From positions 1 through 9,758 of IMG/VR virus record IMGVR_UViG_2663762948_000006: a stretch of 9,758 nt of DNA; one strand, written 5' to 3'. The notes under the pieces are model-generated. The model was not told where the DNA came from and did no database searches. It was given only the letters and a program-made list of their open reading frames with translations. Made by a program: the position numbers and the translations under genes. Source of the stretch: a virus. Taxonomy: Duplodnaviria; Heunggongvirae; Uroviricota; Caudoviricetes. Below, one piece after another: positions 1 to 9,758 of this stretch; the stretch's first letter is position 1; each line of letters opens with the position of its first letter.

Positions 1-219
1 TTACATCCACATAATTTGCTGCCCTGATGGCAACGGGTGCGGCCTTACGGCGTGGACTTCTCCCGGCTTCACGATGTATCGCTGTACCGACTCATAAGTG
101 ATGAACGTGGCGCTGCAATTCACGTTCTGGCACTGATGATAACGCTCTTTTGTCGTGTCAGTGATATAGCGGCTTGTACGCGCATGTGCGGCATGCTGGC
201 ATAAAGGACAATGAAACAT
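1..219 (-). CDS. ogr: Ogr late-gene transcriptional activator (zinc-finger, P2 Ogr / P4 Delta family), 72 aa
   Basis: Translation from ATG at 217-219 gives MFHCPLCQHAAHARTSRYITDTTKERYHQCQNVNC..., with the CxxC...CxxxxC zinc-finger spacing and the 72-aa length of P2 Ogr. The 93-aa ORF in the track begins at an upstream TTG (280-282) and is probably an over-extension. SD-like GGAAGAGG lies about 8 nt upstream of the ATG on the minus strand. Confidence 0.9.
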   Translation of the reverse strand: MFHCPLCQHAAHARTSRYITDTTKERYHQCQNVNCSATFITYESVQRYIVKPGEVHAVRPHPLPSGQQIMWM

Positions 220-253
220 CGCGAGCACCTCTTCCGGTTTTGTTGATGGTGCC

Positions 254-282
254 ATTTTAGTTAATTTATCCTTACAAAACAA
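254..282 (-). promoter_or_regulatory. Putative sigma70 promoter for ogr (-35 TTGTTT, 17-bp spacer, -10 TAAAAT, read on minus strand)
   Basis: By eye: reverse complement of 277-282 is TTGTTT and of 254-259 is TAAAAT, 17 bp apart, about 35 nt upstream of the ogr ATG. No experimental support. Confidence 0.3.
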
Positions 283-300
283 ACAGATAAAACAAAAACA

Positions 301-1464
301 TCACTCATCATCTTCTGTTTCGTACTCCACATCAGAAAGCCTGACCTCAAGCTCTAAGGACGTCGTGAAGCCGCTATTATTCAGAAAATGTGTCACCTTA
401 GTGATTGTCCAGTCCTGCTCGTCTATGACGCGCTTAAAGCCAGACACTTTGACCGGTGTTTCCGTGTAAATATCTGCCCGACCGGTAGCCAGGCTGATGG
501 AGAACTCCGCAACGCCCCGTTGCAGTTTATCCCACTTCGCCTGAGCGGCGCGCATGGCCTGCGCTTTCGTGGCATATACCGTGGTCAGGGCAAAAACGTT
601 GTCAGCCTCACCGGCCATGTATTCACCTTCACGCGCTTCCGGTACTTTAGGCGCTTTCTTCTGCCTGACCGGTTTCGCTTTCGGGTGCTCCAGTGCGCGC
701 AGGTGTTTCTCTTTCTTTTTGCGTTTCAGTTTTACCTTCTGCTTTTGCGGCTTCGGGTCTTTAGTGTGTAGCCATTTTGCCGTTACACCGGTGTAGGCTC
801 CACGGTCAGCAATCGCAAAATGATGGCGGTCGCCGTCGCTGCGGGTTATGGTGACCTGCGGGATTTTTTTACCGCTGGCCGTCACTCCCTGCCCCGCTTT
901 GAGAAACAACAGTTTTCCCATTTTTACCGACACCTCACCGCCGTTGCGTTCTGCAAGACGGGTCAGGAATTTCGCATCAGACTCCTGCGACTGGTCGATG
1001 TGTGGAATTTTTATTCCGGCCAGTGACGGAGCGACACTGGCTTCCAGCCTGTTACGGGTGGCTATCGCCTTAACAATCGCACCGAGCGTGGTGTCATGCC
1101 AGGAGCCTTCCCGGCGGGAATTGAGCGTCCCGCGAAAATCTGCACTCCGGGCGCGGATGGTGACTACATCCGGTGCGCCCCGGTGTTCAACCTCATCAAC
1201 GGTAAATTTCCCTTTGCATACCAGGGCAAAACCTTTCCAGCCGATATACACCGTCAGGACAGCGCCACGAACCGGCAGCCCGACCTGCCCGTCGGCATCG
1301 TTCAGTTCAATATCAAGCTGGTCAGCCTCAAAGCCCCGGTTATCCGTCAGGGTCATGCTCATCAGACGGTCGCTGATATTGCCGGTAATATCCCTGCTGT
1401 CGAGCATCAGCATGTAATCCGGCGTCAGCGTACTGCCTGCATCAAATGTCAGCGCATCCAGCAT
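301..1464 (-). CDS. D: P2-type tail protein gpD (late control gene D), 387 aa
   Basis: 387-aa ORF, the length of P2 gpD, lying directly upstream of ogr as in P2 (T-U-D-ogr). The start ATG (1462-1464) overlaps the stop of the upstream gene as TAATG on the minus strand. Contains a Lys-rich basic segment. Confidence 0.88.
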   Translation of the reverse strand: MLDALTFDAGSTLTPDYMLMLDSRDITGNISDRLMSMTLTDNRGFEADQLDIELNDADGQVGLPVRGAVLTVYIGWKGFALVCKGKFTVDEVEHRGAPDVVTIRARSADFRGTLNSRREGSWHDTTLGAIVKAIATRNRLEASVAPSLAGIKIPHIDQSQESDAKFLTRLAERNGGEVSVKMGKLLFLKAGQGVTASGKKIPQVTITRSDGDRHHFAIADRGAYTGVTAKWLHTKDPKPQKQKVKLKRKKKEKHLRALEHPKAKPVRQKKAPKVPEAREGEYMAGEADNVFALTTVYATKAQAMRAAQAKWDKLQRGVAEFSISLATGRADIYTETPVKVSGFKRVIDEQDWTITKVTHFLNNSGFTTSLELEVRLSDVEYETEDDE

Positions 1465-1943
1465 TATCCCGCCCCCGTCATACCTGTGAATCTGGTCGCC
1501 ATACTGCCGGCCTTACCGATGAGCGATTCCGCCTGTTTACCGATATCGCCATAAAGCGCGGCCAGTGATTCATCAACGCGGGTGAGTGACAGCGTAAAAT
1601 CAATTTTCCGGGGTGTGCCGTCTGCAAAGAAAATACTCCCTGTTTCACTCACCCTGCTGATGACATACATGCCGTAAATCATGCCGGTGCCATCCAGCAA
1701 CGGCCACGCCCGCCCCTCCTCTGCCATCAGCCTGAGCGTGGTCATCGTCAGCTTGCCGCCGGTCAGTTCGGGATAAAGCACACCGGCCAGCGTGATGTTT
1801 TCCTCACCCACACCGAGAAACTGAAAGGCATCCCGTTTACCGATACGGGAATTTGACGGCCAGCGATAATCTGATTCACGCTGCATGGTCTGGTGTGGCA
1901 GCGTCTGGCGCATAAAAACAAACATACCTAACGCGAGCATCAT
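1464..1943 (-). CDS. U: P2-type tail protein gpU, 159 aa
   Basis: 159-aa ORF, the length of P2 gpU, between the T remnant and D on the same strand; its stop overlaps the D start. Confidence 0.85.
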   Translation of the reverse strand: MMLALGMFVFMRQTLPHQTMQRESDYRWPSNSRIGKRDAFQFLGVGEENITLAGVLYPELTGGKLTMTTLRLMAEEGRAWPLLDGTGMIYGMYVISRVSETGSIFFADGTPRKIDFTLSLTRVDESLAALYGDIGKQAESLIGKAGSMATRFTGMTGAG

Positions 1944-1957
1944 TTTTCGTCACCTCC

Positions 1958-2743
1958 TTAACCGTCATGCATCATGCTGGCACGGGCGCGCACACGTTTA
2001 TCCCGCTCGTATTTTTCGAGCGCATCCTGTAACTGGCGGTCAAGCTGTGTCCCCGGCGCAGTCCCCCCCGTCAGGCTGATGTGATATTCGTTTTTACTCT
2101 GGTCTACATAAGAGCGGCCAGCCGGTGCCGTGACCGGCTGATAAGCCTGATAGCCTGCATAAGAGCTGGTCGCCGGAATATAGTCACCGGTACCATACGT
2201 GGCGGTATGAGTTCTGGCGGCGGTCTGGTCAAGTGTGTCTGACTCTTTGTTGATAACACCGAGTTTTTCCAGTACCCAGTCAATACCACTGCGCAGTTTG
2301 TTGAACGCATTAAGCGGCAGCATCAACGCGTCAGCCAGTGCCTGCCCGAACATGACGCCCGTGTCACGGCAACGGTTCAGGGTGTCCTGGGTGGCTTTGA
2401 CCGGGGCAATCAGGTTTTTAAACCACTGCCACGCGGCCTGTAACTTTTCGCCCAGCCAGTCAAAAACCGGTTTAAGTGGCGTGAACAGTTCCCCCACCGG
2501 CGCAAATGCCGCTTTCAGCCCTTCAACCACACCACCAAAGAATGCGCTGACAGGCTCCCAGTATTTACGGATAAGCAACGCACCGGCGACAATGGCAGCC
2601 ACCACGGCCACAACCGGCCAGCTAATCGCCCCGATGGCCGTCATAACGGCACTGCCAACCGTCGTGAAGATTGCCCCCATTGCGCCTGCTGCCGCGATGA
2701 TGGCATTGATGCCGGTGATACCCATTCTGGTCGGGTGAACTGT
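1958..2743 (-). pseudogene. T: Tape-measure protein gpT, 3'-terminal remnant (about 255-261 codons of roughly 815); 5' part deleted
   Basis: The ORF ends 14 nt upstream of U as in P2 (T then U). The translation has a long Ala/Gly/Ile-rich hydrophobic segment and a C-terminal region typical of tape-measure proteins. The frame is closed by an in-frame stop at 2744-2746, so only the C-terminal third is present. First ATG is at 2723-2725. Confidence 0.8.
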
Positions 2744-3615
2744 TCAACCGGGGACGCGCCAGCGCCGCCGAACGCGTGGAAATCGACGTCAGTCATAACG
2801 CCCTTGCCGGAGGTCTTCTCTGTGCGGACGGCCAGTGGCGGCAGATTGTCACCATTGAGGACGCACTGAAAGGCGGCTGCACGCTGTTCGACATTGAGCA
2901 GCTCAAACGCGAAAACAGCGCCGACGATTTTAAAAACCTGTTCATGTGTGAATTTGTTGACGACAAGGCGTCGGTATTCCCGTTCGAGGAGCTGCAACGC
3001 TGCATGGTCGACACGCTGGAAGAATGGGAAGACTATGCGCCGTTTGCCGCCAATCCGTTCGGCTCCCGCCCGGTATGGATTGGTTACGACCCGTCACACC
3101 GTGGCGACAGCGCCGGATGCGTGGTGCTGGCACCGCCGGTGGTGGCCGGTGGCAAATTCAGAATACTTGAGCGTCACCAGTGGAAAGGCATGGACTTTGC
3201 CACCCAGGCGGAATCCATCCGCAAACTCACCAAAAAATATAACGTCGAATACATCGGTATTGATGCCACCGGCCTCGGTGTCGGCGTGTTCCAGCTCGTG
3301 CGCTCGTTCTATCCCGCCGCGCGCGACATCCGCTACACACCGGAAATGAAAACCGCAATGGTGCTCAAGGCAAAAGACGTTATCCGCCGTGGCTGTCTGG
3401 AATATGACGTCAGCGCCACCGACATCACCAGCTCGTTTATGGCTATCCGCAAGACCATGACCAGCAGCGGACGCAGCGCCACCTATGAGGCCAGCCGCAG
3501 CGAGGAAGCCAGCCACGCCGACCTCGCCTGGGCGACCATGCACGCTCTGTTAAATGAGCCACTCACCGCCGGTATCAGCACCCCGCTGACATCCACCATT
3601 CTGGAGTTTTACTGA
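2719..3615 (+). pseudogene. P: Terminase large subunit gpP, 3'-terminal remnant (nuclease-domain half); 5' half deleted
   Basis: The frame is open only from 2719 (in-frame stop at 2716-2718) and its first start codon is GTG at 2776. The translation carries terminase nuclease-domain-like motifs (WIGYDPSHRGDSAG, EYIGIDATGLGVG). Its stop overlaps the Q start (TGATG at 3613-3617), matching the P-Q order of P2. P2 gpP is about 590 aa; only about 280-300 codons remain. Confidence 0.8.
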
Positions 3616-4649
3616 TGAGCAAGAAAAAAGGGAAAACACCGCAACCTGCGGCAAAAAAAATGACCGCCAGCGCCCCGAAAATGGAGGCATTCACCTTTGG
3701 CGAACCGGTGCCGGTACTCGACCGCCGTGACATTCTGGATTACGTCGAATGCATCAGTAACGGCAGATGGTATGAGCCACCGGTCAGCTTTACCGGTCTG
3801 GCAAAAAGCCTGCGTGCTGCCGTGCATCACAGCTCCCCGATTTACGTCAAACGTAATATTCTGGCTTCAACGTTTATCCCGCATCCGTGGCTTTCCCAGC
3901 AGGATTTCAGCCGCTTTGTGCTGGATTTTCTGGTGTTCGGTAATGCGTTTCTGGAAAAGCGTTACAGCACCACCGGTAAGGTCATCAGACTGGAAACCTC
4001 ACCGGCAAAATATACCCGCCGTGGCGTGGAGGAGGATGTTTACTGGTGGGTGCCGTCCTTCAACGAGCCGACAGCCTTCGCGCCCGGCTCCGTGTTTCAC
4101 CTGCTGGAGCCGGATATTAATCAGGAGCTGTACGGCCTGCCGGAATATCTCAGCGCCCTTAACTCTGCCTGGCTGAATGAGTCGGCCACGCTGTTCCGCC
4201 GCAAGTATTACGAAAACGGCGCTCATGCCGGATATATCATGTACGTCACCGATGCCGTGCAGGATCGCAACGATATCGAAATGCTTCGCGAAAACATGGT
4301 CAAGTCGAAAGGCCGCAACAACTTTAAAAATCTGTTTCTCTATGCCCCACAGGGGAAAGCCGACGGTATTAAAATTATCCCCCTCAGTGAAGTGGCAACG
4401 AAGGACGATTTTTTTAATATCAAAAAAGCCAGCGCCGCTGACCTGCTGGACGCACACCGCATCCCCTTTCAGTTGATGGGCGGCAAGCCGGAGAACGTCG
4501 GATCGCTGGGTGATATTGAAAAAGTGGCAAAGGTCTTTGTCCGCAATGAGCTTATCCCGCTACAGGACAGAATTCGGGAAATAAACGGCTGGCTCGGCCA
4601 GGAGGTCATCCGCTTTAAAAACTATTCACTGGAGACTGACAACGGCTGA
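3615..4649 (+). CDS. Q: Portal (capsid vertex) protein gpQ, 344 aa
   Basis: 344-aa ORF, the length of P2 gpQ, immediately next to cos as in P2. GGAG lies 8 nt upstream of the ATG. Translationally coupled to the P remnant. Confidence 0.9.
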   Translation: MSKKKGKTPQPAAKKMTASAPKMEAFTFGEPVPVLDRRDILDYVECISNGRWYEPPVSFTGLAKSLRAAVHHSSPIYVKRNILASTFIPHPWLSQQDFSRFVLDFLVFGNAFLEKRYSTTGKVIRLETSPAKYTRRGVEEDVYWWVPSFNEPTAFAPGSVFHLLEPDINQELYGLPEYLSALNSAWLNESATLFRRKYYENGAHAGYIMYVTDAVQDRNDIEMLRENMVKSKGRNNFKNLFLYAPQGKADGIKIIPLSEVATKDDFFNIKKASAADLLDAHRIPFQLMGGKPENVGSLGDIEKVAKVFVRNELIPLQDRIREINGWLGQEVIRFKNYSLETDNG

Positions 4650-4654
4650 ACATC

Positions 4655-4676
4655 GCCGCCTGCGGGCGGCTTTTTT
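4655..4676 (+). terminator. Rho-independent terminator downstream of Q
   Basis: GCCGCC (4655-4660), loop TGCG, GGCGGC (4665-4670), followed by TTTTTT (4671-4676), starting 6 nt after the Q stop codon. Confidence 0.55.
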
Positions 4677-4818
4677 ACACCCCGCCATCACGCCCTCACA
4701 CGCTCATCACCGCACAAAAAATCCCGCAGACACACCAACGCCTCAACGGGCAGACTAAGCGCCGTCACGACGCGCTCAGACGCTGAAAAAATAAAATCAG
4801 CACCACCGCCAGCGCGCA

Positions 4819-4837
4819 GTGCTTTCCCCGCCTCGCC
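4819..4837. other. P2/P4-type cos site (19-nt cohesive-end sequence)
   Basis: Plus strand 4819-4837 is gtgctttccccgcctcgcc, whose reverse complement GGCGAGGCGGGGAAAGCAC is the 19-nt P2 cohesive end as I recall it. The flanking sequence toward Q also matches my recollection of the P2 left end. Confidence 0.72.
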
Positions 4838-5000
4838 CGCCCGCTTCATGGAGCGCTTTTAATGCAGTTGCAATAACACATCAAAACATCGTCAATACAG
4901 GCGATTATAAACAATAAAAAACGATCGCTGCCGCATGCAAAATCATGCACTAAATGCATGTATTGAAGGGAAATTAGGAACGTGCTCGTTTGGGTCTAAA

Positions 5001-5897
5001 CTATGATTTCGACACAACTATTTTCCCCAAATCAAAACTAAATTCGACATCCCCATTTACGATATTTTCATTTGTCACATGCTCATCAAAAAGGTCACTA
5101 ACATCATACCCCGACTGAAACACTGGGCTCATGATAGCCACGTCGGTGAATGGCTCTTTTTCATGTGTTATATAATATTGACCATAAACATTTGCAGATT
5201 CATCTGCATCATTAAGACTAAGGACTGTTTTTGCTTTGACTTCAGGCATCAGAGAAAAATCAATATTATTCAACAAACACAGTAAGATGCCTGCTATTGC
5301 TCTCCTGTTATTATCAAGCGGCATCAAGTCCACCCCTGGAATCTCCTTCCGAAGCAATATTTTCAGCTCATTAAATAAAGAGTCGAACTTAATTGCGTCA
5401 GAACAATTGAGTAACGACAAAGCTTCATTAATCATTCGCCCTTCATTGGAACCAATTTCTGATGTTAACTTACAAACACCATCATTAACAATATACGATT
5501 TTTTGTTATTAAGCTTCTTCCTCGCTGTAATTACCTGCCCCCCCTTTAAGTTTAACTTCTCCTTTAAAAACTCATCACTGAACATTCTTAATTGCAGTCT
5601 GATTAATGTAGGTAAGTATTTCGGGTATTCATTTAACTCTGGTTTAACAGCATGCTTGTCGCGTCCAAATTTTAAACTTAATAACAAATGATTCCTCAGC
5701 ATGATATCCTTTATCTCGCCTTGATCTCTCCGATGATTATGGGCAACAAAACTCCCAATTTCAAAAATACACTTGGGCGCACTCGGCAACTCACGGGCCG
5801 TAACAAAAAGAACATCAATATCACTATCAGTGAAACTCCCATCCTTTAATCTTCTCAACACTCTCTCTATTCTTGAGATTGCTTTACTTTTATTCAT
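5001..5897 (-). CDS. Hypothetical protein, 298 aa; low-GC cargo gene in the P2 tin/old hotspot position; function unknown
   Basis: Long uninterrupted ORF with an ATG start (5895-5897) in a visibly AT-rich block that contrasts with the surrounding P2 backbone. Lys/Asn/Ile-rich composition. I see no Walker A, HNH, HExxH or other recognisable catalytic motif. It lies between cos and the replication gene, where P2 carries tin and old. Confidence 0.7.
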   Translation of the reverse strand: MNKSKAISRIERVLRRLKDGSFTDSDIDVLFVTARELPSAPKCIFEIGSFVAHNHRRDQGEIKDIMLRNHLLLSLKFGRDKHAVKPELNEYPKYLPTLIRLQLRMFSDEFLKEKLNLKGGQVITARKKLNNKKSYIVNDGVCKLTSEIGSNEGRMINEALSLLNCSDAIKFDSLFNELKILLRKEIPGVDLMPLDNNRRAIAGILLCLLNNIDFSLMPEVKAKTVLSLNDADESANVYGQYYITHEKEPFTDVAIMSPVFQSGYDVSDLFDEHVTNENIVNGDVEFSFDLGKIVVSKS

Positions 5898-6177
5898 GAC
5901 ATTCTTTCAACCTTAATCAATATTTAATTTAAACAAACCATTCTCATACGCCAACCATACCTGTGACACCTGACAAACCAAATAAAAACAAAGGTACAGC
6001 GGATATTGGTATGTACAGCTATATTACACATAAACTCATGTTAGTAACATAAGATCTTCTTGTGAATATTTGTAATTTATTAGTTCACCAACATTAATCT
6101 TTCCAACCGTTATAAATCCAATCATATGCTGATACTCAAATGACGGCCAACTACCACCTCGCGCTGTTCGTTGTTCC

Positions 6178-6220
6178 CTCCAGCAGCACTGGAAGCATGT
6201 TTCAGTACTGCTGGGGTTTT
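6178..6220. terminator. Stem-loop (about 12-14 bp stem, one mismatch) followed by a T-run on the plus strand; possible bidirectional terminator
   Basis: CCAGCAGCACTG (6180-6191) pairs with CAGTACTGCTGG (6203-6214) around an 11-nt loop, then GGTTTT (6215-6220). It sits immediately after the stop of orf67 (6224) on the minus strand, but the U-tract is on the plus-strand side. Confidence 0.3.
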
Positions 6221-6223
6221 CTA

Positions 6224-6427
6224 TCAACAACGTGGTAGCAGTGCAATTTTAGACTGTTCTATATCGTTAAACCGCACGTAATTATCCCGGACTATTTCGG
6301 CACACCCGACCAACTCGTCGGGCGTCAGATTTTCGTTGACCATAATCTGCTGTAGACGGTGAACAATAGCCATCAGCTTGATATTTTTAGTGTTATGTTG
6401 CGGTATCTCGCCTGGTATTCTGTGCAT
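6224..6427 (-). CDS. Hypothetical small protein, 67 aa (from ATG at 6425-6427)
   Basis: The ATG overlaps the TAA stop of the upstream DUF3850-like gene (TAATG on minus strand), suggesting translational coupling. No recognisable motif. The track ORF (6224..6439) starts at an upstream GTG. Confidence 0.35.
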   Translation of the reverse strand: MHRIPGEIPQHNTKNIKLMAIVHRLQQIMVNENLTPDELVGCAEIVRDNYVRFNDIEQSKIALLPRC

Positions 6428-6882
6428 TATCCAAGCCACCCGTTTTGCTTTGCACGCTCAATCTGTTCATCTGAATAGTTCCATGCTCCATCCGTGGCAA
6501 CCATTGCCCCGCCAGACATCCCCGTCTCTGGTTCATACATAACAGCAAGGCCGAGCTGATGCATAATTTCATGATTAATTCTGAATACCAGACCACGCTC
6601 ACTAAGTTCTTTCCAGTTCACAATCTCATATGCGCCTGTATTAAGCTGCTCAATACTTAGCAAGACATAATCTTCCAGCCAGTCTGACAGGTCAGTAACA
6701 TCTGTTATCCGGGCTTCAACCTTTCGCCCCGTATACACACCCTGCACCCATTCATGCAAAATCAACGTGTCCCCGCGCTCATAATTACGGTCATTTTTCC
6801 GAAACTCTGCGCGTTTCTTTCCTTCCAGCACAAGGTCGAAATATTTTGCGTGCAGCTTTACCTCGTGAATTTTTGCCATCAT
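6427..6882 (-). CDS. DUF3850/ASCH-like (PUA-fold) domain protein with a C-terminal HExxH motif, about 151 aa
   Basis: The N-terminal region (KIHEVKLHAKYFDLVLEGKKRAEFRKNDRNYERGDTLILHEW...YTGR) resembles the DUF3850/ASCH-like family as I recall it. The C-terminal part contains HEIMH (6559-6573), an HExxH zinc-binding-like motif. The likely start is the ATGATG at 6877-6882, which overlaps the TGA stop of A (6879-6881); the track ORF extends 11 codons further upstream into A. Confidence 0.65.
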   Translation of the reverse strand: MMAKIHEVKLHAKYFDLVLEGKKRAEFRKNDRNYERGDTLILHEWVQGVYTGRKVEARITDVTDLSDWLEDYVLLSIEQLNTGAYEIVNWKELSERGLVFRINHEIMHQLGLAVMYEPETGMSGGAMVATDGAWNYSDEQIERAKQNGWLG

Positions 6883-8729
6883 GTCCACTCCATTACTGTT
6901 GAGAATCCCGGCCACTCATCAGCGACCGGATACGTGAATTTTTTCCCGTCATAATTTACAGTCGCGCCACGCGCCAGCGCCTCAAGCTCCCATCGCTGCG
7001 GCCTGATACCGTTCTGAGCAAGGTCAACGCGGATACGGGTGATTTGCATTCGTTCCGACCGGGTCAGTCTGGCAGATGGTGCAATTTCATGCGGTTTTAA
7101 CGGGCTTCCGTTTCTTTGCTGACGGTTTGGCGTTCTCATGTCGTATTTTAATGCGCCCCTGAGCGCCCTCACGACCTCCGGTTCATTCCATTCAATAACA
7201 CCGTCATCAACCAGATTAAGCACTGCTGCGGCGTGCTCAGAAGGTGTGGGAGCCGGTAACGAAGTATCACCACCGGTGAGCTTTCCACAGTTATTGACAG
7301 GACTCCGAGGCGCGGCGATGCCGCTTTTTAAAGTCAAAGGCTCAACGACCGGAACTTTCGGCACAATGCGCCAGTCCGTCGTTCTGGTGATATGAATATG
7401 ACGCGCGCCGAGATGCGGCGCGTAAATGCCGACCACTCTCTCGACTTCTTCCTCGTACTCGTTAACGTCATCCGACGGGCTACGGGCAACCCTGACAGTC
7501 TGACAATCGCGCGGGACATTTGCCCCACCCTGCGCGCTGATATACAACGCAAAATCACCACTGTCTGCGGCAGCGCGAGCAGCCTCGACGCGTTCGTCAA
7601 ACTCATCAGCAATACTGACGCCGCGAGGCAATTTGCGTAGTTCACGGTAAGCCCCCATTGTCGGCAGTCCAACCGTTTTAAATTGCGGGATGCGCCACGT
7701 TGACGCCCATGCGGTAACAGCCGCGGCAGTATCTTTAAGCGGCTTACCGGTATCGTTATCGAGCTGACCATCCAGTGCATAGCCGTCGATATTTTTTGAA
7801 ATGTATTTCGCGATATATCCCGCAGCACCGCCCCGGTTAAGGTGCTTTGCCTGAAAACGGTTTCGCGCGGCTCCTCTTTCGTCACCATCCTCTTTGAGCG
7901 CATAGCGACGCATGATTTCGATAATCTGGTTACGCTGGCGTGGATTACAAAAAAGCATCATATGCCAGTGCGGCGTTCCGTCGTGGTGTGGCTCGACGAC
8001 ACGCAAACCGTAGACCTGTAAATCATTATCCTTGAATGCCGTGCGCATCAGGCTCCAGATGCGGCAGAGATAACGCTGCGCATCCTTTGGATTAAATGCC
8101 TCATCGTTCCAGCCGTGATTAAGCTGAACGGTTTTACTTTCGCCTTTTCTGACCTGACGAGTCGGGTGATACTTTGACGGCGCGGTCAGCGTGATAAACA
8201 TCCCCACATCACCCTCTGCGGCGGCGTAACGCTCAATACCGGCAATGGTGTTCATCAGCTCCATCCGGCGAATTTCAGGATTAGAAATACTGCCCATCAC
8301 CTTACTGATAAGGTCGATGCGCTCGCCGGTTTCCCTGTTTTCAAGGTCACACGATTTAAGAAATTCCAGATTTGCCTGGCGGCGCGCACGCACATCACGA
8401 ATGGCGTGTTTACTGGCATACATCATGAAAAGCTGCGATGAGATACGGGCGGCAAACTTTTTCAGCTCCTTGTCATTCATTCCCGGCAGGCGCGCATAGT
8501 GGTCACGCTCTGCCAGAAACAGCAACGACGCGTCGGTGTTCATTTCATGGCGCTGATTCACACGCTCAATGCGCGGCCATAAACGACGCTGAAAAGTGGA
8601 TGTGAGAAAATAAAACCCGTGCACCGGGCTTTTATTACGCCGGATGTAGTCATAGCGTGAAGTAAACAGCGAGCGCAAAAAGTAAGGCAGGCGATTTATC
8701 GTGGATAACTCTATATAAAAATTACATTT
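6879..8729 (-). pseudogene. A: Rolling-circle replication initiator gpA, 5'-truncated (about 600-616 C-terminal codons of 761 retained)
   Basis: The translation contains the paired-tyrosine motif GYIAKYISK (Y288 and Y292 of the track ORF). P2 gpA is 761 aa with active-site tyrosines that I recall as Y450 and Y454; the offset of 162 plus 599 equals 761, so the C-terminus aligns exactly. The frame is closed by a stop at 8730-8732, the first start in frame is TTG (8676-8678) with no SD, and no B, cox or C genes lie upstream. Confidence 0.8.
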
Positions 8730-8755
8730 TCACCATTTGCCACCAAGATGGTGAA
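8729..8755. promoter_or_regulatory. Nested inverted repeat immediately upstream of int (possible operator or protein-binding site)
   Basis: TTCACCA (8729-8735) and TGGTGAA (8749-8755) are 7-bp inverted arms 13 bp apart; nested inside is CACCA-AGA-TGGTG (8741-8753). It lies 23 nt upstream of the int ATG within the A'/int junction region. Function is inferred only. Confidence 0.25.
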
Positions 8756-8777
8756 TACAGCGCCGGAGGGCTTTCTT

Positions 8778-9758
8778 ATGGCAATTAAGAAGCTCGATGA
8801 TGGTCGCTATGAAGTGGACATTAGACCTCGCGGTCGCGACGGAAAACGCATCCGCAGGAAATTTGAAAGAAAAGCTGAAGCACTAGCATTTGAGCGATAC
8901 ACAATCGCCAATGCCAGTCAGAAAGAATGGGGAGGCCAGCGAGCAGACCGCCGAACTTTGACAGAATTGCTCGACATCTGGTGGAAATACCACGGGCAAA
9001 ACCACGAGCATGGGACAAAAGAGTTTAATCATCTGCTCAAAACCATCAGCGGCATAGGTGATATACCAGTGAGTCGGATGAACAAAAGGGCTTTGATGGA
9101 TTATCGCTCCATGCGACTACGTGATGGCATCAGTGCTGCAACGATAAACCGCGACATGTACCGATTATCCGGCATGTTCACAAAATTAATTCAATTGGAT
9201 GAATTTTCCGGGCAACACCCAATTCACGGACTGCCGCCACTGACGGAGGCTAACCCTGAAATGACGTTCCTGGAAAAAGCAGAAATCGAAAAACTGCTAA
9301 ATGTTTTGACTGGTGATGACTTACTTGTCGCGCTTTTATGTCTGAGCACTGGAGGAAGGTGGACGGAAGTTGCCACGCTAAAACCAGCACAGATTACAAG
9401 TTGCAGGGTTACCTTCCTGAAAACCAAAAACGGTAAAAAGCGAACAGTGCCGATTTCTGAGGAACTGGAGAAAAAAGTTAAAGAGGAGGCCAGCGCCAAA
9501 TTGTTCAAGGTAGATTATGAGAAGTTTTGCGGGATTTTACGCAGAGTGAAACCTGATATACCTCCCAATCAGGCAACCCACATTCTGCGGCATACATTCG
9601 CAAGCCATTTCATGATGAATGGGGGCAACATAATTGCACTGCAACAGATTCTGGGGCATGCGAGCATTCAGCAGACAATGACCTATGCGCACCTTGCGCC
9701 TGACTACCTGCAGAACGCCGTCGCTCTGAATCCACTAAAAGGCGGAGTGACGTTATAA
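8778..9758 (+). CDS. int: Tyrosine recombinase, P2-type integrase (326 aa from ATG 8778; alternative start ATG 8748 gives 336 aa)
   Basis: N-terminus MAIKKLDDGRYEVDIRP... matches my recollection of P2-family Int. The C-terminal catalytic region carries the tyrosine-recombinase signature (HILRHTFASHFMMNGG...LGHASIQQTMTYAHL). GGAGGG lies 8 nt upstream of ATG 8778; the upstream ATG at 8748 has no SD. Confidence 0.9.
   Translation: MAIKKLDDGRYEVDIRPRGRDGKRIRRKFERKAEALAFERYTIANASQKEWGGQRADRRTLTELLDIWWKYHGQNHEHGTKEFNHLLKTISGIGDIPVSRMNKRALMDYRSMRLRDGISAATINRDMYRLSGMFTKLIQLDEFSGQHPIHGLPPLTEANPEMTFLEKAEIEKLLNVLTGDDLLVALLCLSTGGRWTEVATLKPAQITSCRVTFLKTKNGKKRTVPISEELEKKVKEEASAKLFKVDYEKFCGILRRVKPDIPPNQATHILRHTFASHFMMNGGNIIALQQILGHASIQQTMTYAHLAPDYLQNAVALNPLKGGVTL

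Follow-up and report, generated by a model that had tools for sequence, protein, structure and literature searches.

The cos site of phage P2 has been defined since the 1970s to 1990s, and its functional region reportedly spans about 125 bp. The terminase of a complete phage, which consists of gpM and gpP and works together with proheads, is expected to recognize cos and to make two nicks 19 nt apart, giving the 5' overhang GGCGAGGCGGGGAAAGCAC; in a complete relative of the element described here, the enzyme would bind elements on the right-hand side and nick on either side of the 19 bp. Passages in PMC3931495, PMC5694545, and PMC9594776, which cite Ziermann and Calendar 1990, describe a 55-bp core that is conserved among P2-type phages and P4 and is needed for packaging. 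The P2 hotspot that lies adjacent to cos has been described in PMC9122126.

We analyzed a window of 9,758 nt, which is the whole stretch of viral DNA considered here (IMG/VR record IMGVR_UViG_2663762948_000006, positions 1 to 9,758). The element is a Peduovirus (P2-like) prophage remnant in which about two-thirds of the genes are gone: blastn against P2 (AF063097/NC_001895) revealed a reverse-complemented, heavily deleted P2-like prophage that runs from ogr to int (Table 1). The window opens with the stop codon of ogr and closes with that of int, which places the att sites beyond its borders. All ORFs of at least 150 aa outside other genes, together with ogr, are P2 homologues or encode the 298-aa cargo protein.

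Table 1. Features of the 9,758-nt window, numbered from its first base.
Feature	Position	Strand	Description
Segment ogr to T	1-2723		P2 24254-21532, 99.7% identity (blastn); ogr, D, U, last 255 T codons
ogr	1-219	-	Pfam match
D	301-1464	-	Pfam match
U	1464-1943	-	Pfam match
T, C-terminal 255 codons	1958-2725	-	Pfam match
Junction of 17.1-kb deletion	2719-2723		T codons joined to P codons head to head; 5-bp microhomology TACCC
Segment P to left cohesive end	2719-4837		P2 2117-1, 97.1% identity; P C-terminal half, Q, tQ, left cohesive end
P remnant (large terminase)	2719-3615	+	gpP ~293-590; nuclease half kept, ATPase N-terminus lost
Portal gene Q	3615-4649	+	Full length, 344 residues; 340 of 343 aligned residues identical to P2 gpQ; Pfam Phage_portal
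tQ, intrinsic terminator of the P-Q operon	4655-4676	+	P2 tQ at 160-181
Spacer between tQ and core	4677-4811		Conserved within the P2 lineage only; lacking in P4
A/T-rich tract AAAAAATAAAAT	4786-4797		-33 to -22, i.e., 22-33 bp left of the cohesive end
55-bp core	4812-4866		7 bp left, 19 nt, 29 bp right; P2/P4/186 alignments and profile over 118 unique cos regions
19-nt cohesive end GGCGAGGCGGGGAAAGCAC (cosN equivalent)	4819-4837	-	One exact match in the window
Right cohesive end plus 29 bp	4819-4866		P2 33593-33546 (48 bp)
Variable cargo of the cos-adjacent P2 hotspot	4867-6658	-	A+T-rich; 298-aa protein and small ORFs; no P2 match or counterpart
Distal repeats	4935-4949; 4954-4958		ATGCA-N5-ATGCA, then third ATGCA; begins +116 from first cos base
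298-aa protein	5001-5897	-	phrog_29586 only, function unknown
71-aa ORF	6224-6439	-	
DUF3850/ASCH protein	6427-6915	-	
orf91 and A	6659-8708		Gap inside
Replication gene A	6879-8708	-	Crippled; residues 1-63 and 151-248 missing
Junction of 297-bp deletion	8417-8420		
Junction of 2,607-bp deletion	8702-8708		
Integrase	8748-9758	+	Full length; 98% identical to the GPEC1035 prophage integrase

The first-pass annotation of this DNA had described most structural genes as deleted, and we could confirm this. P2 coordinates 2117 to 21532, from the tape-measure gene T to the terminase gene P, are absent from the window, a loss of 17,141 bp when measured against a closer relative, the prophage of E. 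coli GPEC1035. The window no longer has gene M or the genes for capsid, scaffold, lysis, baseplate, fibre, sheath, and tube, and what is left of P contains a 279-aa ORF that corresponds to gpP 312-590 at 99% identity and matches Pfam Terminase_6C along with only the tail of Terminase_6N. The Q promoter pP was deleted as well (P2 3016-3087 falls inside the deletion), and, judging from the P2 annotation, Q, U, and D would be without their late promoters. Two smaller deletions bring the sequence missing relative to GPEC1035 to 20,045 bp: one of 297 bp, which is in frame and lies inside A, and one of 2,607 bp, which begins at the A start, takes in orf80-83, B, and cox, and spares no more than the final few bases of C. 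The window is left without the excisionase gene cox and without B, and with a full-length int whose upstream C is deleted. At the DNA level, this int is just 72-80% identical to that of P2. In P2, Pc lies upstream of C (P2 annotation), and the int promoter Pc was probably lost along with C. An equivalent of the ori nick, its position computed from the P2 annotation, appears to be retained near 7306. The gene set of a viable P2-like prophage, with head, terminase, lysis, tail, immunity, and replication all complete, is not present, and P, T, and A are truncated. The prophage around cos has thus decayed by three deletions and is left without terminase function, repressor, Cox, and B, without its capsid and lysis genes and most of its tail genes, and with an incomplete A.

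The first-pass annotation had also recognized a P2-type cos site with an unbroken 19-nt cohesive end, and this reading stands. The 19-mer is an exact match, and it is identical to both annotated P2 ends (cosL/cosR, AF063097) and to the P4 end. The predicted nicks fall at 4818/4819 on the plus strand and 4837/4838 on the minus strand and would leave 5' overhangs. As expected of a P2-type cos, the site lies downstream of the portal gene and its terminator and adjoins the variable hotspot and gpA. A 53-aa ORF (4688-4849, minus strand) spans the cohesive end, matches phrog_17350 (E = 1e-32), and is annotated as a hypothetical protein in some phage records; since the reading frame would be interrupted in linear virion DNA, we regard it as a probable artefact that gene callers produce repeatedly. 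In the record of phage vB_EcoM-12474III (NC_049457.1), a 1-nt gap near position 4730 interrupts the 19-nt cohesive end (GTGCTTT-CCCGCC...), which is probably a homopolymer sequencing error in that record.

To the left of the cohesive end, the Q terminator is retained, as had been reported: its stem, GCCGCC-TGCG-GGCGGC (4655-4670), is followed by T6 (4671-4676) with a fold energy of -14.4 kcal/mol, and gene Q itself is intact too. The accompanying claim that the Q-proximal flank matches the P2 left end is correct for P2, where we found 94% identity to P2 1-236, but P4 shares with this flank no more than 7 bp and the A/T-rich tract, and outside the tract the tQ-core spacer bears no similarity to P4. 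An RNA gene as the reason for the conserved spacer was considered and rejected, as Rfam and tRNA scans of the window returned no match and no tRNA gene.

We profiled, without gaps, 120 IMG/VR loci that carry the exact 19-mer and grouped them according to the homologue that they encode, Q or Psu. The core was placed (7 + 19 + 29 bp) from the alignment of P2 with P4, and in Q-bearing and Psu-bearing elements alike, conservation begins at -7 and reaches about +54, counted from the first cos base. The A/T-rich tract is the sole left-flank feature common to P2-like and P4-like cos regions, with a mean A/T fraction of 0.92 in Q-bearing and 0.84 in Psu-bearing elements, compared to 0.37 and 0.57, respectively, further left. 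On the other side of the cohesive end, ATGCA-N5-ATGCA starts at exactly +115 in P2, P4, and 186 and one base further out in the window, where it occurs a single time. At +114 to +125, the repeat is found in all 18 unique cos regions that bear Psu and in 65 of the 92 that bear Q, and in none of 116 shuffled flanks, while the sequence between core and repeat shows no conservation across cos regions. The tract, the core, and the repeat are all conserved across at least 110 unique cos regions from Q-bearing and Psu-bearing elements that are otherwise unrelated. Both the repeat and the tract, which as marks of a cos site were derived in the present analysis and are no established standard, are present in the window.

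Since its spacing is fixed and it is found in helpers and satellites alike, we infer that the distal repeat belongs to the packaging signal, where it would probably serve as a second terminase recognition element. Such a role agrees with the report that cosmid transduction rises more than 10,000-fold with longer cos flanks (PMC9594776). Alternatively, the repeat could be a terminator-like hairpin or an insulator at the hotspot border, and a hairpin is indeed predicted on the minus strand (4960-4944). In P2, the distal ATGCA repeat lies just upstream of the annotated old-tin transcript starts. We considered whether the repeat is simply the cargo promoter and rejected this, as the cargo gene in the window is on the opposite strand and runs towards cos, and old is absent from P4 and 186. 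Together, the comparisons suggest that the packaging signal spans approximately 4786-4958 and comprises the A/T tract, the core, and the distal repeat, all three of which are in the window. The span of 4655-4837 originally assigned to the site holds tQ, the spacer, the A/T tract, and the 19-mer, but it omits the core bases 4838-4866 and the repeats at 4935-4958.

Alignment with the P2 ends had been put forward as a check on whether the site is intact, and its outcome was mixed: the 19 nt are without mutation and the recognition flank is present, but the right half of the 55-bp core carries three substitutions. The core is there, with 52 of 55 positions matching P2 and differences at 4849 (T; C in P2), 4852 (A; G in P2), and 4856 (C; G in P2), and two of these three positions rarely vary. 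While T at 4849 is the majority state (95 of 120 loci), G occupies 4852 in 115 (96%) and 4856 in 108 (90%) of the 120 other cos regions, and both positions are G in P2, P4, and 186. The exact core of the window is identical to none of the 120 IMG/VR cos regions and is absent from 50,697 phage records, where no isolated phage carries it and the best match reaches 97%. The changes at 4852 and 4856 break the P2 dyad CCGCCC/GGGCGG beside the cut site, but 186 and many natural variants break this dyad too, and natural variation within the core is greatest at its positions 36-46.

We found that the 371 bp that connect the Q end with the cargo gene (4640-5010) are 100% identical to the GPEC1035 prophage (NZ_CM142796.1), which by annotation has a full, unflagged P2 gene set and is apparently complete, and whose gpP and gpM are 100% and 98% identical to those of P2. 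We found the exact 111-bp segment around the site (4790-4900) in 21 complete E. coli genomes, whose sources are varied (human, chicken, pig, cattle, and river water). Carriers of this cos module sit at three chromosomal sites (cpxP/fieF, yegR, and pflB), and those at cpxP/fieF and yegR have different integrases, the int of the window being unmatched in the yegR carrier. The site can therefore be called intact because it is identical to that of a full-length prophage, GPEC1035, and not because it is identical to that of P2. Since the 371-bp interval is unchanged and the GPEC1035 terminase is 98-100% identical to that of P2, cleavage in trans is probable. From these sequence comparisons, we consider it likely that cos has kept the sequence of its parental phage type and that a P2-type terminase could still use it as a substrate. 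With the exact core missing from isolated phage records, this competence rests on prophages, whose viability is putative.

Our main reading is that an ordinary P2-type cos has been retained in a decaying prophage as a passive relic, to which we assign a probability of about 0.85. The site most likely survived because it lies in a 5.7-kb block between two deletions, beside Q and the cargo, and not through use. That the 19-mer is instead a chance or non-functional resemblance and marks no cos site at all can be given almost no credence, as none of 200 window shuffles matched it even with 3 mismatches allowed, co-linearity with P2 extends over 2.1 kb at the left end and over 48 bp at the right end, and the position between Q and the hotspot is conserved. 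A less extreme view is that the site is complete in sequence but impaired, such that the substitutions at 4852 and 4856 weaken the dyad, the terminase cuts poorly, and the carriers were all inherited vertically or spread by recombination and not in virions. The predominance of G at both positions points this way, as do the absence of the exact variant from the phage records and the visible defects of several carriers (F247; 730V1, with IS5 in its early region; and the window itself). However, every P2 gene is annotated as intact in the GPEC1035 carrier, the module has been found in 21 complete genomes of diverse host origin and at three attachment sites, and the affected part of the core is naturally variable, with 186 breaking the same dyad. 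We therefore regard impairment as unlikely.

The first-pass annotation had further suggested that a P2-type terminase supplied in trans could cut and package the element, as occurs for P4. The first half of this suggestion is reasonable, since the recognition sequences are present and cleavage is plausible, but the likeness to P4 overreaches: cox, B, and Sid/Psu are missing, A is crippled, and the C region upstream of int is lost. In the remnant, cos could be acted on in trans only, and such cutting, like the role of the distal repeat and the passive retention of the site, is something that we infer. For transfer as in P4, the element would need to be excised by a helper's Int and Cox with the matching specificity, to be amplified, for which its own copy of A is crippled, and to reach a packageable length, namely that of P2- or P4-sized DNA; the remnant itself can provide none of the three. 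P2 A is usually described as cis-acting.

Put as a rival reading, this idea makes the remnant a helper-dependent mobile element, or proto-satellite, that keeps cos, int, ogr, and the cargo gene because a P2-like phage, whether resident in the same cell or superinfecting, excises, cuts, and packages it as happens with P4. All conserved parts of cos are present, int is full length, and ogr is intact; at about 10 kb, the element is near the 11.6 kb of P4, and three copies would come near the P2 genome length; and cosmids of 5-10 kb that carry cos are packaged if P2 as well as P4 functions are supplied (PMC2231350). Cos and the hotspot also persist in other defective P2-like prophages, whose deletions are different, but these remnants are a biased sample, having been found by their resemblance to the window, and therefore offer no evidence for selection. 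The missing cox and B, the gaps in A, and the deletion of the C region, which holds Pc for int in P2, all argue against mobilization. Efficient packaging requires P2- or P4-sized DNA, and small capsids require Sid (PMC9942202, PMC6893505), while neither Sid nor Psu families were detected in any scanned window ORF (Pfam, PHROGs). There is also no sign of spread: neither deletion junction is contiguous, and the whole arrangement is absent, in 5,426 complete E. coli genomes, a 34-mer across the T/P junction has no match in 185,579 GTDB representative genomes, and none of the IMG/VR loci retrieved spans this junction. We thus consider a proto-satellite very unlikely, and the narrower possibility of rare helper-mediated mobilization of this remnant is given similarly little weight. 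A related view holds that decaying P2-like prophages are selected to keep cos plus hotspot and that the remnants are helper-mobilized carriers of cargo; a P2-like phage, either resident or incoming and equipped with the same integrase and terminase, would then excise, cut, and occasionally package them, as multimers or, if P4 is also present, in small capsids made with Sid. If this were true, we would be looking at an early stage in the birth of a satellite, but we find it highly improbable. Returning to the passive relic, a P4-like lifestyle is not supported, and the sequence would at best fit a rare passive passenger.

The cargo that adjoins cos has a G+C content of 35-40%. Its 298-aa protein has no Pfam, PADLOC, or NCBIfam match, and the same trio, a DUF3850/ASCH protein with two hypothetical proteins, appears in the hotspot table of PMC9122126 (Rousset et al. 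2022) with no function given. This cargo (the 298-aa protein, the 71-aa ORF, and the DUF3850 protein) is a candidate anti-phage gene.

Several prophages resemble the window in other respects. The GPEC1035 prophage (cpxP/fieF) is 98.5% identical over window positions 2719-8420 and has the same cargo and the same integrase type. In F247 (pflB), PE15 (pflB), and isolateD (cpxP/fieF), a tail gene is likewise joined to P or Q, with FI joined to Q in F247 and T joined to P in PE15 and isolateD; the head, lysis, and baseplate genes are removed, and cos, the hotspot, A, D, U, and ogr are kept. These three differ from the window in their T-side or FI-side endpoints, the cargo of PE15 and isolateD is different, and isolateD keeps C, cox, and B. 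However, the P-side endpoint of isolateD, TACCC, is that of the window to the nucleotide, and isolateD retains 386 bp more of T, which suggests nested, stepwise deletions in one lineage. The comparison also suggests that the cos-hotspot block was later exchanged by recombination in the lineage of the window and isolateD. Several complete E. coli chromosomes (NZ_OY754407.1, NZ_CP041628.1, and others whose hits begin at record position 160), including those with the F247 and PE15 prophages, are rotated such that position 1 is the start codon of prophage A, so that the prophage is split across the record ends; presumably, the assembly-rotation tool took gpA for the chromosomal replication initiator.

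A P2 cos in a degraded prophage is an already known and expected feature. A chromosomal cos that a P2-type terminase can cut would be a possible substrate for rare mobilization of the neighboring cargo gene, and it may act as a recombination partner through which incoming phages exchange hotspot cargo, as PMC9122126 suggests. Our comparison may also be of modest use for the design of P2/P4 cosmids, since the signal shared by helper and satellite appears to lie mostly to the right of the cohesive end and to include the ATGCA repeat at its fixed distance; from practical experience, those who design such cosmids are already aware that packaging is far better with longer flanks (PMC9594776).

Compared to phage-inducible islands of the SaPIbov5 type that are packaged through cos (PMC6893505), whose transfer is proven, the remnant lacks dedicated modules for excision, replication, and helper exploitation; like them, it is chromosomal, carries a helper-type cos, and is without a terminase of its own. 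P4 (NC_001609) has the identical 19-mer, the shared core, the A/T tract, and the repeat, and it needs the terminase of its helper. On the other hand, P4 carries alpha, ori/crr, epsilon, delta, sid, psu, and an integrase, while the window has just int and ogr, a relative of Delta, and a left flank of the P2 type. We found no alpha primase-helicase and no ori/crr, the sole replication gene being the truncated gpA, and no epsilon-like gene in the window; the intact ogr encodes a zinc finger of the Ogr/Delta family and is an ordinary P2 gene. Since the replication and size-control features that we looked for are absent, the element is not a P4-like satellite. The cos of P2 itself differs in the three right-half core positions, in its other cargo (the window has no old/tin), and in belonging to a phage that has not lost its terminase and capsid genes. 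In all other respects it is the closest match, with an identical 19-mer in the same place after Q and tQ, 52 of 55 core positions, 94% identity in the left flank, and a repeat distance that agrees to within 1 bp.
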